A DNA stretch of 64,000 bases, from positions 1,991-65,990 of the forward strand of contig QHCE01000057.1 of the NCBI GenBank assembly GCA_003243955.1. Direction: 5' to 3'. Source of the stretch: Acidimicrobiales bacterium. GTDB taxonomy: Bacteria; Actinomycetota; Actinomycetes; Mycobacteriales; QHCE01. Under the pieces are notes generated by a model. It saw only the letters and a list, made by a program, of their open reading frames with translations, was not told the DNA's origin and did not search any database. The translations under genes and the position numbers were made by a program. Shown piece after piece: positions 43,419 through 49,352 of this stretch (positions are counted from its first letter, which is position 1; the number at the start of each line of letters is the position of its first letter).

Positions 43419-43682
43419 TTAGCGGATTTGGAGGTCGCGTAGCTGGTTTTGGTACTGCTCCTGGTCGATGTCGCCGGCGGCGTAGCGACGGCGCAGCACC
43501 TGGAGGGCTTCGTCTGGTTGGGCGGTTGGGTTGCCGAGTCGGGGGCTGCTGGTTCGAACTAGCCAGATGATTCCGAGTACTACTGCGATGATCACGCCGA
43601 TTCCGGCCAACATCCAGATGGTCATCCATAGGCCCATGCCGCCCATTCCATACATGCAGTGTGCGTATCGCATTGTGATCAC
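43419..43682 (-). CDS. SHOCT-domain small membrane protein
   Basis: 87 aa with a Met/Gly-rich N-terminus, one TM helix, and C-terminus [25 protein letters not shown]. The start overlaps the copA stop. Confidence 0.65.
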
Positions 43683-45946
43683 TGTCCTTTCTGATCGGGA
43701 GTGAACCTGAACAGTCGCAGGCTGTTAGTGACAACGAAAATGCTAGAGAACACCATAGCTGCGGCGGCGAGTATGGGAGTAACCATTCCAGCGGCTGCCA
43801 AGGGCAGAGCCGCTGTGTTGTAGGCGAACGCCCAGAACAGGTTCCCTTTGATGGTGCGCAGGGTGCGGCGCGATAGCGCGATGGCGTCCGCGGCGGCGCG
43901 AAGGTCGCCGCGCACCAGTGTGAGGTCGGCGGCGTGCATGGCCACATCGGTGCCGGTACCCATGGCGATACCGAGGTCTGCTTGGGCCAGGGCTGCTGCG
44001 TCGTTGACCCCATCACCCACCATCGCGACGACTTTGCCTTGGTCTTGCAGTCGTTTCACTGCATCTACTTTGCCGGCGGGCAGGACCTGCGCCATCACAT
44101 CGTCGATGCCAACTCGCTGCGCCACGGTGTGGGCGACAATGATGTTGTCGCCGGTGAGCAGGATCGGGTGCAAGCCCATGCGCCGTAGCATCTGCACAGC
44201 ATCGACCGAGGTGGATTTGATGGTGTCGGCGACGCTTAGCACTCCTTGGGCCTGGCCCGCCCAACCGATGAGCACCCCGGTGTGTCCTTGGCGAGCCGCT
44301 GCCTCCATCGCGGCAGCCAGCGCCGCGGGAATGGGCATCTCACGTTCGATGAACAGGCTCTCTCGGCCGATGAGAACGTCACGACCGTCAACGGTCGCGG
44401 TGGCACCCAAACCGGGCAGCGCCTGGAAGGCCACCACTGAGGGCAGCGTGCCGAGTTGGTCGCGGGCCGCGGTGGCGATGGCCTGCGCGATGGGATGTTC
44501 GGAGGCGTCTTCGACCGCCCCCGCGTAGCGCAGCACCTCGATATCAGAGGCTCGGTCGGTGGCAGTCACTCCATTGAGCGACATCCTTCCGGTGGTGACC
44601 GTGCCGGTTTTGTCCAACACGATCGTGTTCACCTTGCGAGTAGATTCCAGAATCTGTGGGCCCTTGATCAGTATGCCTAGTTGCGCGCCGCGCCCAGTCC
44701 CGACCAGCAGCGCTGTGGGAGTTGCCAGGCCAAGCGCGCAGGGGCAGGCCACGATCAGTACCGCGATCCCCGCGGTGAGTGCGGCGGCGGTGCCGGCTCC
44801 AGTGCCGAGCCAGAACCCGGCCGCGCCGGCCGCGCCGGCGAGGACTATGGGTACGAAGATGGCCGAGATTCGGTCGGCAAGGCGCTGCACCGGGGCCTTG
44901 CCGTTTTGGGCCTGCTCGACGAGGTAGGCCATCTGGGCGAGCTGGGTGTCGGCGCCGACTCGGGTAGCTTGCACGACCAGTCGGCCACCGGCGTTGATGG
45001 TCGCGCCGACCACAGCGTCACCGACGCCGACTTCGACGGGAATGCTCTCGCCGGTGAGCATGCTCGCATCCACTGCGCTGGCGCCGTTGATGACCACGCC
45101 GTCGGTGGCGATCTTTTCGCCGGGTCGGACAACGAAGGTGTCTCCGACTTGTAGGGCGCTGATGGGTATTCGATGTTCGGTGCCATCGCGGAGCACGGCG
45201 GCGTCTTTGGCGCCCATATCCAGCAGTGCCCGCAGAGCGGAGCTGGCTCGATATCTGGCGCGGGCCTCGAAATAGCGGCCTGCCAACAGAAAAACGGTCA
45301 GCGCCGCAGCTATCTCTAGGTAGAGGTGACTCGAGGCCGAGCCCCGCGGGGCGAACAACGCCACATCCATATGTACGGCGGGCTCGCCGGCTCCGCCAAG
45401 GAACAGCGCGTAGGTGCTCCAGCCGAATGCGACGACCACTCCGAGCGAGATCAGAGTGTCCATGGTCGCGGCGGCGTGGCGCAGGTTCAGCAGTGCGGCG
45501 CGGTGGAACGGCCACGCACCCCATACGGCGACGGGTGCCGCGAGGGCGAACGCAAGCCATTGTGAATGCCGGAACTGCAGGGCCGGGATCATCGACAGGA
45601 CGATGACCGGGATCCCCAGTATTGCGCTGACAGCCAGCCGGTTCCGCAAGGACAGCTCCGCCCCGCGGGTTTGAGCGCGACCGGTCTCCTTGGCGTCGGC
45701 CGTGCCGGCTGTCGGCTCCTGGTCAGCCGCTGCACGTGGTTGAGGAATGGTCGCGGTGTAACCGGTGGACGCTATGGTACGCACCAGCTCGGCCCCTTTT
45801 ACTGTTTCCGGGTGCTGGACCTGAGCGGTTTCGGTGGCGAAGTTGACTGTCGCGGTCACACCGTCCAGTTTGTTGAGCCGACGCTCGATCCGGGCGGCAC
45901 ACGACGCGCAGGTCATACCGCCGATCGCCAACTGTGTCATTGACAT
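43679..45946 (-). CDS. copA: copper-translocating P1B-type ATPase
   Basis: 755 aa with N-terminal [15 protein letters not shown], the TM CPC motif ([11 protein letters not shown]), DKTGT and [10 protein letters not shown]. Confidence 0.95.
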
Positions 45947-45955
45947 GTCAATCTC

Positions 45956-47655: not shown

Positions 47656-48744
47656 TTACTCCTTCACGATGCTGAGTTGGCCTGAGTACATGCCCATGCC
47701 GCAGGTAAACCGCAGCTGTCCGGGCTGGAGCGCGCCGAGGTTGATGTGGGTGTCGCCGTTGGTGGGCAGGATCCACTGCTTGTCCTGCGACGGGATGACA
47801 AACGACCGCACACACCCGTCGACGTTGTGGGACGAAACGGTGAGCGTTGTTGGGATGCCGGCTTTGATCTTTGTGTCACTGGGCCCGTAGAAGGCGGTGT
47901 GAGCCTCGATTACCACCGTCTGTCGGCCATCGATGATCGACGGCGGTGGTACGTTAGCGCTGGTGGGAGAGCTGAACCCCACGGCTGCGACTACTCGGCT
48001 GGCGGCCAAGGGCGAGCCGGCCAACTCCAATCCGCCGTTGAGCGTGTACAGGCCCATTCCCAACACGACCAGCCCGGTGAGCACCGCCAGCCGACCGCGC
48101 CACGCGGTCGCGGCTTTACGGGCCACATATCCGAGCAGAGCGAACATTGGGCTGGTGCCGCCCACGAATACGGCCATGATCGCTGCTCCCGACCACGCCG
48201 ATCCAGACGTCAGTGCAAGCGCTTCCACTGAAAGTGTTATGCCGCAGGGCACCAACACAGTGGCGAGTCCCAGCACGGTCGGAGCAAACGCCGATGTGGA
48301 ACGGGCTCGACCCCGGACCAGTCGGGACCAGGCGATTGGCGGCTCGATGCTGATGCTGCGGAAACCTGGCACGCCAAGCTGTGCCAAGCCAAAAATCACG
48401 ATCAGCAGACCAGCACCGATTTGAGCCATCATCCGGGCCTGGACTGATAGCTCAACCACGCCACCCAGCGCGCCAAGCGCCGCACCCACCAGGGTGTGTG
48501 AGACCAGTTTGCCCACCAAAAAACTACCCACCGGCGCCAGATCATCCCCGAGTCGGTTGATCACTGAACGCGACGGCGGTGCTGGAGTGCTCTTTCCCGG
48601 TTGCTCACCTTTGATCGGCGGCGCGAGTTCGGCGGCACGTTGTCGCGACACCAAACCAGCCAGCAGACCCCCTTGCACCGCAGCGCAGGAGACACCACCA
48701 GCGAATAAACCGGTCACCAAAACAGCAGAGAGATTCATGCTCAA
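47656..48744 (-). CDS. TauE/SafE (DsbD_2)-type permease fused to a C-terminal cupredoxin-like domain
   Basis: 362 aa. N-terminus ..GLFAGGVSCAAVQGGLLAGL.. with about 6 TM helices. C-terminal soluble domain ..IKAGIPTTLTVSSHNVDGCVRSFVIP...LRFTCGMGMYSG. Family call from memory. Confidence 0.65.
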   Translation of the reverse strand: MSMNLSAVLVTGLFAGGVSCAAVQGGLLAGLVSRQRAAELAPPIKGEQPGKSTPAPPSRSVINRLGDDLAPVGSFLVGKLVSHTLVGAALGALGGVVELSVQARMMAQIGAGLLIVIFGLAQLGVPGFRSISIEPPIAWSRLVRGRARSTSAFAPTVLGLATVLVPCGITLSVEALALTSGSAWSGAAIMAVFVGGTSPMFALLGYVARKAATAWRGRLAVLTGLVVLGMGLYTLNGGLELAGSPLAASRVVAAVGFSSPTSANVPPPSIIDGRQTVVIEAHTAFYGPSDTKIKAGIPTTLTVSSHNVDGCVRSFVIPSQDKQWILPTNGDTHINLGALQPGQLRFTCGMGMYSGQLSIVKE

Positions 48745-48905
48745 TCAGACACTTTCACGATAGATGGCAGCGATAAGGCGCGAAGACCACGCCGCAAAGC
48801 CCCAGGGCGTGCGGCAAGACCGAAAAGGATTCGCGGAGTCCGCGATCGGCCGCGCGGCTCTAGTGGCGCGCGGTTCTAGCCAGTGCGGCTATGAACGAAC
48901 TGCTA

Positions 48906-49352
48906 TTACGTTCGCAACACACATAACTGTAGGCGCGTAGGCCCTACGCGCAGAAACGTGAACAGTGAAAACGTGCGATAGCAAGGTAGGGACAGAGCGC
49001 GCCACGCAGACGGTGCGCGCAGCATCAGTAACCAAGTGACCACACCGAGCAGGAGCGCGATGCACGCTCCCAAGGACATCCCAGATTCTTCACTGAAGGA
49101 ATTAGGTGCCCACACCGTAGAAAACACCGCAGAACTAGCGATGTTTACCGCGTCACTACCTGTGGTCATTACATGACCAGCATTGTGGGCCGCCACAGTA
49201 CCGCTGGCCGGCATCGACATGGTGCGGGCGAGCATGCCGTCGCCACACTGCATTCCGCTGGTCACAATGAAGCCGCCTAGGAAGACAGCCAGAACACATA
49301 GTCGTATCACCCAAAGGCTGCCAGCGCTAACGTGGCCTGACCGTGATCCCAC
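48906..49352 (-). CDS. DUF6153-like small membrane protein, paralogue 1
   Basis: 148 aa: TM helix, MQCGDGM, Met/His-rich linker, second TM helix, and a C-terminal ..RLQLCVLRT. Confidence 0.6.
   Translation of the reverse strand: MGSRSGHVSAGSLWVIRLCVLAVFLGGFIVTSGMQCGDGMLARTMSMPASGTVAAHNAGHVMTTGSDAVNIASSAVFSTVWAPNSFSEESGMSLGACIALLLGVVTWLLMLRAPSAWRALSLPCYRTFSLFTFLRVGPTRLQLCVLRT

Follow-up and report, generated by a model that had tools for sequence, protein, structure and literature searches.

The window analyzed here, a 64,000-nucleotide (nt) stretch of contig QHCE01000057.1 from an Acidimicrobiales bacterium (GenBank assembly GCA_003243955.1), carries a cluster of minus-strand genes that includes the copper pump gene copA. 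Judging by sequence comparison and structural modeling, the cluster contains a real copper-export operon assembled from recurrent uncharacterized actinobacterial modules, and two of these modules can be given specific metal-site assignments. The first is encoded by a gene for a DsbD_2 permease joined to a CupA-type domain (the fusion); the second is a protein of two modules with a histidine triad in each (the tandem protein). Beyond this, we infer a relay of copper through the membrane, metal binding by the histidine triads and cysteine-based sensing by an adjoining BlaI/BlaR pair. Altogether, we read the locus as a composite actinobacterial copper-stress operon, in which cytosolic Cu(I) export would be coupled to copper handling at the outer face of the membrane, and we put the probability of this reading at about one half.

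All nine minus-strand open reading frames (ORFs) of the cluster, including blaI and blaR, were confirmed in the window; their strand, their junctions and the motifs quoted for them in the initial annotation of this locus are all present in the sequence. Six of its domain calls also pass the Pfam thresholds (DsbD_2 with Cupredoxin_1, HMA, DUF2752, ATPase, SHOCT and the BlaI/BlaR domains were checked). Read directly from the sequence, the fusion gene is separated from the HMA gene by 2 nt, the HMA and DUF2752 genes overlap by 4 nt (GTGA), a 19-nt gap leads from DUF2752 to the tandem gene and a 9-nt gap, with a GGAG overlying the stop codon, from there to copA, which overlaps the SHOCT gene by 4 nt. 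The DUF6153-like first gene is the exception, lying 161 nt away from the fusion gene. The spacer between the two (48745..48905) contains hairpins at 48850-48873, 48831-48845 and 48788-48811; the one at 48831-48845 scored as terminator-like, and ATCCTTTT comes after it. Since the junctions are tight and the first gene is set apart by the spacer and its hairpins, the six genes from the fusion through SHOCT very probably form one unit, while the DUF6153-like gene may be a transcription unit of its own. The seven-gene operon proposed initially is thus well supported for six of its genes and less certain for the first. Downstream, a 91-nt gap separates SHOCT from blaI, which overlaps blaR by 4 nt (ATGA). 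The scan detected nothing terminator-like in this gap, and read-through from SHOCT into blaI-blaR is therefore possible.

The gene order of the window is repeated in a near-identical relative (L001, a 7.9-kb Logan contig), in which the proteins are 97-99% identical and which ends inside copA. The complete seven-gene set was seen as a unit in no other locus, and the next-closest relatives of the unknown proteins are ~50-67% identical. Megablast against plasmids returned only ~75% matches, confined to copA. Parts of the cluster were followed in 84 loci with the fusion gene (4 from genomes, 80 from metagenomes) and in 84 loci with the tandem gene. A Frankia locus (L088) and L136 share the order fusion, HMA, one gene, CopZ-type HMA, tandem, CopA, the intervening gene coding for DUF2752 in L136 and for an unannotated 265-aa protein in L088. 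Because L001 keeps the order and the sub-modules recur in both sets of loci, the arrangement, judged by synteny, is not a chance one. The cluster is mosaic: its modules reappear throughout Actinobacteria and recombine between loci.

The pump itself is the least ambiguous component. CopA (43679..45946, minus strand) has one N-terminal HMA domain (GMTCASC) and exceeds the cut-offs of two curated models (TIGR01511, 511 bits versus 397; TIGR01525, 577 versus 346), remaining below that of the E. coli CopA equivalog (537 versus 1316). Pfam maps E1-E2_ATPase, Hydrolase and HMA onto it, and its translation contains, besides the HMA motif, the DKTGT phosphorylation site, the CPC of the sixth helix and, in the last helices, the YN(x4)P (YNTAALP) and M(x2)SS(x5)N signatures. 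As the curated models are passed and the signature motifs are present, CopA is by sequence a Cu(I)-exporting P1B-1 ATPase. The locus was thus rightly called a copper locus, and the unknown genes in it do belong to uncharacterized families. As in Gram-positive csoR-copZ-copA operons, a chaperone accompanies a P1B-1 pump, and the window has a CsoR gene and CsoR-type palindromes at other places; in contrast to those operons, there is neither csoR nor a CsoR box in this one, the HMA protein is of a fusion-partner subtype and the tandem gene is inserted between chaperone and pump.

The fusion (47656..48744, minus strand; the real start is probably the ATG at 48738) was characterized by Pfam, alignment and structural modeling. 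It matches DsbD_2 with 96 bits (3.5e-27) and Cupredoxin_1 with 38.8 bits. Like members of the DsbD/CcdA superfamily, it has a six-helix core, which the AlphaFold (AF2) model also displays, with cysteines in helices 1 and 4. In 25 aligned family sequences C20 in transmembrane helix (TM) 1 and P166-C167-G168 in TM4 are invariant, and so are C311 and C348-x-M350-G-M352 of the C-terminal domain; TM1 reads SC, unlike the PC of CcdA. The motif FTCGMGMYSG is present in the translation. When the C-terminal 112 residues were compared with PDB sequences (phmmer), the best match was 4f2f (E=8e-4), the cupredoxin-type metal-binding domain of Streptococcus pneumoniae CopA, followed by CupA (2mry/4f2e, E=1.7e-3), with the lone Cys and the CGMxM ligands aligned with those of 4f2f and CupA. 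This domain is modeled with a predicted local distance difference test score (pLDDT) of 85-96, and Foldseek returned the same structures at the top (4f2f, TM-score 0.83; 4f2e, 0.81; root-mean-square deviations of 1.9 and 2.4 Å). Because the best sequence and structure matches agree and the ligands are aligned, we predict a CupA-type Cu(I) domain. The initial label, ‘cupredoxin-like’, was correct as to the fold and can be refined to this type.

The resemblance to CupA extends to the cupredoxin beta-barrel, the ligand set (Cys plus C-x-M-x-M) and the membrane tether (PDB 4F2E, 4F2F for the pneumococcal CupA and CopA N-terminal domain). In CupA these residues form a high-affinity bis-thiolate site and a Met-rich hand-off site, and the protein has been reported from only a few streptococci (PMC7558416). 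The rest of the CupA system is absent here: CupA has a single N-terminal helix as anchor, is cytoplasmic and works with a cognate CopA that has a cupredoxin-type domain, whereas the actinobacterial domain is C-terminal to a six-helix permease, is predicted to face outward and is encoded beside a CopA with an ordinary HMA domain. The outward orientation is suggested by the positive-inside rule. The family means of lysine plus arginine residues are 9.4, 5.4 and 3.8 for loops 1, 3 and 5, as against 0, 1.0 and 0 for the N-terminus, loop 2 and loop 4, which argues for an N-out/C-out topology with the CupA-type domain outside. DsbD, CcdA and ScsB share with the fusion the six-helix core, the cysteines in helices 1 and 4, the N-out/C-out orientation and a thiol-bearing or redox-active domain fused on the outside. 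They differ from it in that the fusion permease is of the DsbD_2 rather than the DsbD_TM type, lacks PC in TM1, has a candidate Cu(I) site instead of a thioredoxin fold and has an HMA protein as its obligatory neighbor. ScsB is linked to copper tolerance, and DsbD_2 is, in Pfam, one of the permease families of the LysE clan.

The fusion family is large (955 of the scored candidates at E<=0.001), and all 120 relatives among the matches listed have the two-domain architecture; the sources label them ‘sulfite exporter TauE/SafE’ or ‘UreH domain’ proteins. Genes found near the fusion in the 84 loci code for CopA (30 loci), BlaR (20), BlaI (18), the tandem protein (14), CopC/CopD (13), SHOCT (13) and CsoR (12). 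The most constant neighbor is the HMA gene, which lies directly downstream in 74 loci; in several of the ten others the contig ends at or just past the fusion (e.g. L098, L112, L141, L154, L166). In the window the HMA protein (47411..47653, minus strand; Pfam HMA 41.9 bits versus 24.8) contains GMHCSSC and is of a GMHCxSC...LIDDxLEDL subtype. It stays below the cut-offs of the CopZ and MerP NCBIfam models (35.6 versus 91 and similar), and MerTP and MerP are among its best NCBIfam matches. As it has no signal peptide, we assign it as a cytosolic CxxC metal-binding domain. The MHC motif is found in 75 of 75 fusion-linked HMA proteins (consensus GMHCxSC..L[IV]DDxLEDLPGV), as opposed to CopZ proteins encoded before tandem or copA genes in the same islands, which mostly have GMTCxHC (10/13). 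A subtype private to the fusion argues for a dedicated partner that would directly contact the basic cytosolic loops of the permease. The gene that follows HMA in the window codes for a DUF2752 membrane protein (46908..47414, minus strand; PF10825, 52.6 bits versus a cut-off of 27). Such a gene follows fusion-HMA in 27 of the 84 loci, and the DUF2752 proteins of these islands conserve DPTGPCxWH...GPxCGxTR...LLHG (29 sequences). No paper was found in a literature search for ‘DUF2752’ together with ‘copper’.

The tandem protein (45956..46888, minus strand) has, as a single sequence, no match in Pfam, NCBIfam or PDB. A PDB profile search with its family returned only DUF4352 at E=0.11, which we judged a chance match. 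Both H-x-H motifs noted initially, YQHLHP and YVHAHS, are present in the translation. In the AF2 model, based on 31 sequences (pLDDT 83.5; predicted TM-score 0.71), a helix at residues 20-46 is followed by a disordered linker, His-rich in most homologs, and then by two immunoglobulin (Ig)-like beta-sandwiches. The protein was initially described as secreted with two tandem H-x-H modules; the modules are retained in our analysis, but the helix makes it membrane-anchored rather than secreted. The modules are homologous to each other (BLASTP internal repeat, E=8e-8), H131/H144/H146 of one being aligned with H251/H264/H266 of the other, and all six histidines are invariant in the 31 sequences. A profile search of 1.84 billion cluster representatives retrieved 5,924 clusters at E<=0.001 and 3,885 at E<=1e-10; this is thus a large family without a Pfam entry. 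Its members match YtkA (best 6e-4) and DUF4198 (best 0.002; 5 of the 31 sequences) only weakly, and the window protein scores 12.9 bits against DUF4198 (PF10670; cut-off 34, E=0.12).

A Foldseek search with the model retrieved generic Ig-like tandems and Zcp (E 3e-6) of Neisseria gonorrhoeae (PDB 9MHJ-9MHN). Zcp is the first characterized DUF4198 protein, and in crystals its triad binds Zn, Cu, Co and Ni (PMC12663993). Zcp has an extracytoplasmic beta-sandwich with H-x-H and a distant His, and the same is predicted for each module of the tandem protein. However, Zcp, which is induced by zinc limitation, forms soluble homodimers with a single site in each chain, whereas the tandem protein is membrane-anchored and has two candidate sites per chain; its likeness to Zcp and DUF4198 is a resemblance, not membership. 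A functional parallel is CopL of Staphylococcus aureus (tandem DUF1541; copXL/copBL), which is likewise surface-tethered, has two modules with His (and Met) clusters and shares a CsoR-linked operon with a P1B ATPase; a similar acceptor or buffer role was proposed for it beside CopX (PMC5947656). CopL differs in its unrelated fold and sequence, in its lipoprotein anchor and in being encoded after the pump rather than before it.

The strongest evidence for a copper role of the tandem protein is its synteny. Its relatives are encoded on at least 596 genomic stretches of the GTDB species set. Among the 84 loci read, an HMA gene lies directly upstream in 32, a CsoR gene nearby in 17 and CopA is adjacent in 16, in 15 of these directly downstream. 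Overall, 39 of the 84 place the gene beside copper-excess genes (csoR, copZ, copA), and the consensus order is csoR-copZ-X-copA, where X is the tandem gene. Some relatives are fused to CopC. Other homologs (P0346, P0360, P0382) have fusions to DUF4396, a membrane domain, or to CMD/AhpD-like domains. The likely role suggested by genomic context and the model is that of a membrane-tethered copper acceptor or buffer beside CopA. The initial proposal that the permease-cupredoxin fusion and the tandem protein handle copper on the outer face thus gains support from the predicted topology, the CupA-type ligands, the histidine triads, the CopC fusions and the synteny.

Two further small membrane proteins complete the set. 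The SHOCT protein (43419..43682, minus strand; PF09851, 29.3 bits versus a cut-off of 27) is predicted to cross the membrane once, its short Met-rich N-terminus lying outside and its SHOCT domain in the cytosol. SHOCT proteins of the islands, found in 13 of the 84 fusion loci, likewise have a very short Met/Gly/Trp-rich N-terminus, one helix and a cytosolic SHOCT motif; the gene directly follows copA in Kribbella (L086) and Frankia (L088) loci and otherwise lies elsewhere in the island. The first protein of the cluster (48906..49352, minus strand) has two helices, a Met/His-rich outer loop and a C-terminal ...LQLCVLRT. Its initial label, ‘DUF6153-like’, fails at the Pfam threshold, since the protein is unmatched by PF19650. 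A paralog in the window (51039-51536) reaches E=0.22 (12.8 bits versus a cut-off of 27.7) and a Lentzea homolog E=0.019 (16.2 bits). Both weak matches span the whole profile, so a distant relation to DUF6153 is possible. In the common layout two helices enclose a Q-C-x-D-G-M segment and a Met/His-rich loop, and the protein ends in an invariant LC[LV]LR[TI]; a gene with this ending precedes the fusion, at a distance of 77-161 nt, in 14 of 62 loci. A literature search for ‘DUF6153’ found no paper. The C-termini (48906-48925 and 51039-51058 in the window; L085-L154) read ...SLxxLC[LVI]LR[TIVA] after a basic stretch, with invariant Cys and Arg.

Hairpins and a pyrimidine tract recur in the spacers that separate DUF6153-like genes from the fusion in relatives. 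A conserved RNA element was considered there and rejected (RNAalifold ~0 kcal/mol, no compensatory pairs), and Rfam had no match in the window spacer. In several relatives (L085, L086, L089, L108, L110, L139, L154) TAGGAGGAGTCTGCCCGCG stands right after the stop codon, and GTCCTTTCCC...CGCAGGAGGCTT is also conserved across distant genera, with variable hairpins between the blocks; these blocks are absent from the window.

Downstream of the operon are genes for a BlaI/CopY-family repressor (42947..43327, minus strand; Penicillinase_R 88 bits; recognition helix AYNTVLTV) and a BlaR1-like M48/M56 membrane protease (41997..42950, minus strand; HERAH; Peptidase_M48 46.8 bits). The repressor was initially said to lack the CopY Cys motif, and its 126 residues indeed include zero cysteine. 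It scores 28.7 bits against CopY_TcrY (TIGR02698; cut-off 122) and is not a CopY; no cop box was found near the operon. The protease (317 aa) ends 12 residues past its last helix and therefore has no sensor domain. Thus, the repressor and protease of the canonical beta-lactam BlaI/BlaR1 system are present, but the penicillin-binding domain is absent. When 19 island-linked BlaR homologs were aligned, one invariant Cys was found in the TM2-TM3 loop (C74 in the window) and a second in the short C-terminal tail (C312); C68 and H59 are additional in the subgroup of the window protein. By analogy with PetP and BlaR1 topology, both invariant cysteines would face outside. The TM2-TM3 loop and the C-terminal tail contact each other in BlaR1 signaling.

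The same architecture, a Cys-free BlaI whose gene overlaps that of a sensor-less four-helix M48/M56 protease, is found in PetR/PetP of Synechocystis, Rv1846c/Rv1845c of M. tuberculosis and PvmSR of P. aeruginosa. PetP degrades PetR only with copper, and two conserved methionines of its TM2-TM3 loop are the suspected ligands (10.1101/2020.07.31.226407; PMC7896320). For the atypical BlaIR pairs of mycobacteria and Pseudomonas, the sensed signal is an acknowledged open question (10.64898/2026.08.03.742534). The window protease differs from PetP in having the invariant cysteines of loop and tail rather than loop methionines. The operator of the islands is CTACTATC..GATAGTAG or CCTAAG-N3-CTTAGG instead of the GAC-N5-GTC of PetR, which was not found in the relevant promoters, and the putative BlaI targets are copper, thiol-redox and transport genes as opposed to plastocyanin and cytochrome c6.

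This operator emerged as a palindrome from the comparison of 72 fusion-upstream regions (long form CTACTATCTnnGTACnnAGATAGTAG, short form CTACTATCnnnGATAGTAG). With up to two substitutions permitted, 67 copies are present in 724 kb of loci, versus 2.8 expected (maximum 7) in 30 composition-matched, approximately dinucleotide-preserving shuffles. In relatives it lies upstream of blaI, fusion, DUF2752, copA, csoR, copCD and DUF2933 genes, and also within the spacer between blaI and a divergent operon for CcdA-like, redoxin and Glrx proteins. Loci with a BlaI of the window type have the variant C[AT]CCTAAGnnnCTTAGG[TA]G, which precedes blaI, csoR-copZ-tandem-copA, tandem-copA and an operon of thioredoxin, CcdA and fusion genes. 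The BlaI recognition helix tracks the operator: AYNTVLTV goes with CCTAAG, AYTTVM[ST] with CTACTATC, and one intermediate BlaI is paired with an intermediate site. As helix and operator type co-vary, the data support BlaI as the protein that binds the palindrome.

In the window, the core CTAW-N5-WTAG occurs twice in 64 kb (0.56 expected), exactly where the relatives predict. One site, CAACTATCCTCGTTAGGAG (43334..43352, core 43337-43349, minus strand), is 10 nt upstream of blaI, and sites of this type precede blaI in L124, L163 and L137. The other, the best operator in the window, is the perfect palindrome CTCCTAAGTACTTTAGGTG (39791..39809, core 39794-39806) at the start of a CcdA-like gene; it is near-identical to sites in L102, L163 and L121. 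Since these are the only two cores and neither is at the copper operon, the BlaI/BlaR pair probably regulates itself and the thiol-redox operon that begins with this gene. Control of the copper operon, suggested initially from the adjacency of the pair, would be an argument by analogy: the pair does adjoin the operon and the operator precedes fusion, copA and csoR genes in relatives, but not the operon of the window. In five metagenome loci (L106, L110, L114, L123 and L139) the CcdA-like, redoxin and Glrx genes are divergent from blaI. In L110, L114 and L123 the operator lies in the spacer that they share with blaI, and L106 has it ahead of blaI; L139 gave no detectable site.

Other known operators were scanned for upstream of the fusion and the DUF6153-like gene, namely CsoR/RicR TACCC..GGGTA, TACAnnTGTA, GAC-N5-GTC and a TACGAC..GTCGTA dyad that we take to be M. 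tuberculosis BlaI-like, and none was present. The CsoR-type palindromes of the window precede csoR and, by 17 nt, a PALP-MFS operon, and further ones are at 59.7 kb; the copper operon has none. No inverted repeat common to the intergenic regions of the window was found, and a sigma-70 promoter scan of 41.8-50 kb gave 0 sites versus 1.9 expected, a result uninformative for a high-GC actinobacterium. The operon promoter probably lies ahead of the DUF6153-like gene, in a stretch of 390 bp that is richer in AT. This stretch is shared by a divergent plus-strand ORF (49742-50707, 321 aa) with a weak SRPBCC/Polyketide_cyc2 match (E=0.008).

These features can be combined into one mechanism. The tandem protein, held by its one-helix anchor, would expose two Ig-like modules, each binding copper by three histidines, and could serve as acceptor or buffer for copper leaving CopA. 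The fusion would expose a Cys2/Met2 Cu(I) site on the outside, linked via C20 and C167 to the cytosolic GMHCxSC HMA protein, and Cu(I) could be relayed across the membrane by exchange of thiol ligands, from HMA to the TM cysteines and on to the CupA-like site, or in reverse. The logic would be that of MerP-MerT-NmerA, with a thiophilic metal moving between an HMA domain, membrane cysteines and a soluble thiol site. However, MerT has no sequence relation to DsbD_2, and here the HMA protein is cytosolic, the outer partner CupA-like and the metal copper. The DUF2752, SHOCT and DUF6153-like products may be accessory membrane proteins with Cys/His or Met-rich outer segments. In relatives the sensor-less BlaI/BlaR family would control such genes by the palindromic operator, the pair probably sensing copper or copper-driven thiol oxidation via its two outward-facing cysteines. 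In favor of this mechanism, the HMA protein, the CupA domain and the DsbD_2 permease are all of Cu(I)-transfer or metal-transport types. Several points weigh against it. Nothing evident would supply a passive thiol relay with energy, and the membrane part of the fusion is modeled with a pLDDT of only 55-75. For the tandem family the DUF4198 and YtkA matches are below threshold, the Foldseek TM-scores with Zcp are low (0.22-0.27), and 45 of the 84 loci, mostly from Micromonospora, have no recognized copper neighbor, one of the 45 having just a DUF6153-like gene in its vicinity. Within the window, a terminator-like hairpin stands between the DUF6153-like gene and the remaining operon genes, the operator and promoter scans upstream of the operon yielded none, and even a relaxed search found no BlaI operator in 48745-48905 or 49353-49741. 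Finally, L124, a relative with a window-type BlaI, has a bona fide CcdA and a WCAPC thioredoxin upstream of the fusion on the same strand, as probably do L102, L163 and L137, which points to redox chemistry.

This last arrangement introduces a strong rival, in which electrons rather than copper cross the membrane. The DsbD_2 domain would work as in DsbD, CcdA or ScsB, the TM1 and TM4 cysteines passing reducing equivalents to the CupA-like thiols and so enabling Cu(I) capture or the catalytic reduction of Cu(II) to Cu(I) in an oxidizing compartment; on this view the locus would, much like Scs, serve mainly to protect thiols in the envelope. We consider this explanation possible, although not probable. 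The TM1 Cys and the TM4 PCG have the positions of the DsbD/CcdA cysteines in a domain recognized with 96 bits, and the CupA S1 cysteines reduce Cu(II) in vitro (PMC7558416). In L124 (8562-12000) an operator, a TlpA/ResA-like thioredoxin (WCAPC), CcdA, the fusion, HMA and DUF2752 follow each other on one strand, so that the fusion adjoins a disulfide-reducing system of the classical extracytoplasmic type; L102, L163 and L137 probably share this order, as the gene preceding the fusion has a conserved C-terminus in them too. Moreover, the clearest BlaI target is the CcdA-like/redoxin/Glrx operon. On the other hand, an electron relay leaves unexplained why the fusion is followed by a dedicated HMA protein, not a thioredoxin (74 of 84 loci, MHC in 75 of 75), and why this is so wherever the downstream flank was recovered. 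A separate CcdA beside the fusion would be redundant, and TM1 of the fusion has SC instead of the CcdA PC. The HMA subtype private to the fusion is the main reason for which we favor a Cu(I) relay over a pure electron relay.

The direction of transfer could also be inward. In an acquisition or sensing system, the outward CupA-like domain would capture Cu(I) and hand it to HMA for cuproenzymes or cytosolic sensors, and the tandem protein would scavenge or buffer copper like Zcp, which acts as a metal-buffering protein under metal limitation, rather than take part in detoxification. A relay of this kind brings a thiophilic metal into the cell in the mer system, and MerTP and MerP rank among the NCBIfam models that match the HMA protein best; in addition, one fusion homolog (L085) adjoins cytochrome c maturation and COX1 genes, and the 45 tandem loci without an adjacent copper gene would fit. 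However, the tandem gene sits in csoR-copZ-X-copA operons, csoR operons are derepressed by excess copper, the exporter itself is within the operon of the window and the surrounding island also holds CDF, ArsR and CsoR resistance-type genes, all of which makes acquisition an unlikely purpose. A very doubtful explanation, finally, is that the genes are merely adjacent, as a recent mosaic of independently transcribed modules on an acquired island, with no copper role for the DUF6153-like, DUF2752 and SHOCT proteins. The free recombination of modules among loci, the 161-nt spacer with its terminator-like hairpin, the tRNA genes and Tn3 transposase fragments flanking the island and the breadth of the DUF2752 and SHOCT families would agree with this. 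Against it are the 4-nt overlaps (three counted) and 2-19-nt gaps that join the six genes from the fusion to SHOCT, the recurrence of the order fusion-HMA-...-tandem-CopA in L088 and L136 and of the window order in L001, and the conserved Cys/His/Met segment in every accessory protein.

Returning to the copper-stress reading, a more general form of its regulatory part may be put forward, though only tentatively and as less probable than not. Sensor-less actinobacterial BlaR-like proteases might detect extracytoplasmic Cu(I) or copper-driven thiol oxidation via the cysteines of the TM2-TM3 loop and the C-terminal tail, and then cleave a BlaI-type repressor bound to a 19-26 bp palindrome of either operator type. 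The resulting copper/thiol-stress regulon, hitherto unrecognized, would include the fusion and its private HMA protein, which would pass Cu(I) across the membrane from one thiol ligand to the next and need no P-type ATPase for it.

The copper operon is part of a metal island. Immediately left of the island are four tRNA genes (35226-35808), followed by an ArsR-family gene (36694-37131) upstream of two Cation_efflux (CDF) ORFs and a methyltransferase gene. The two CDF ORFs (37086-38048 and 37903-38757) overlap by 146 nt and could be a frameshifted or duplicated CDF gene. The thiol-redox operon (39807..41922, plus strand) codes for CcdA-like, AhpC/TSA-Redoxin, Glrx-like and DUF2933 proteins, the last three types by Pfam; the CcdA-like protein (39807-40799) has no Pfam match at all and was recognized as a polytopic protein of 330 aa with vicinal Cys pairs in two helices (LLAPCCVSV, ASACCAPV). 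On the other side of the copper operon is the PALP-MFS-DUF6153-like operon (51039-53959, minus strand), consisting of a cysteine-synthase-like PALP gene (52817-53959), an MFS gene (51546-52820) and the DUF6153-like paralog, joined by a 4-nt overlap and a 9-nt gap. The CsoR/RicR-type palindrome upstream of it, TACCCCATGGGCA, is at 53976-53988, and the operon resembles cysK2-Rv0849 in the RicR regulon of M. tuberculosis; L087 and L096 likewise have neighboring PALP and MFS genes close to the fusion. Further to the right are a truncated CDF gene (54802-55413), a split Tn3-family transposase gene in two overlapping ORFs (56792-57711) and a CsoR-family gene (58109-58510; Trns_repr_metal 78 bits). 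TACCCGGGTGGGTATA at 58414-58429 falls inside the 5' end of the long csoR ORF and probably marks the true csoR promoter region. Two further TACCC..GGGTA-type sites are near 59.7 kb (59685-59718). The tRNA genes, the split transposase and the truncated CDF gene suggest a horizontally acquired, decaying island.

How Gram-negative bacteria handle copper outside the cytoplasmic membrane is well documented (e.g. CusF, CopC, CueO), but for Actinobacteria, among which mycobacteria face copper in macrophages, little has to our knowledge been described. Three leads follow from the locus. The tandem protein represents several thousand clusters without a Pfam entry, encoded between copZ and copA and equipped with two candidate histidine triads. 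The CupA-type site, reported so far from a few streptococci only, would reappear facing outward on a DsbD-like permease with a cytosolic HMA partner. Finally, for a subset of the atypical BlaI/BlaR pairs the operator is now defined, and a signal and two sensing residues can be named as candidates.

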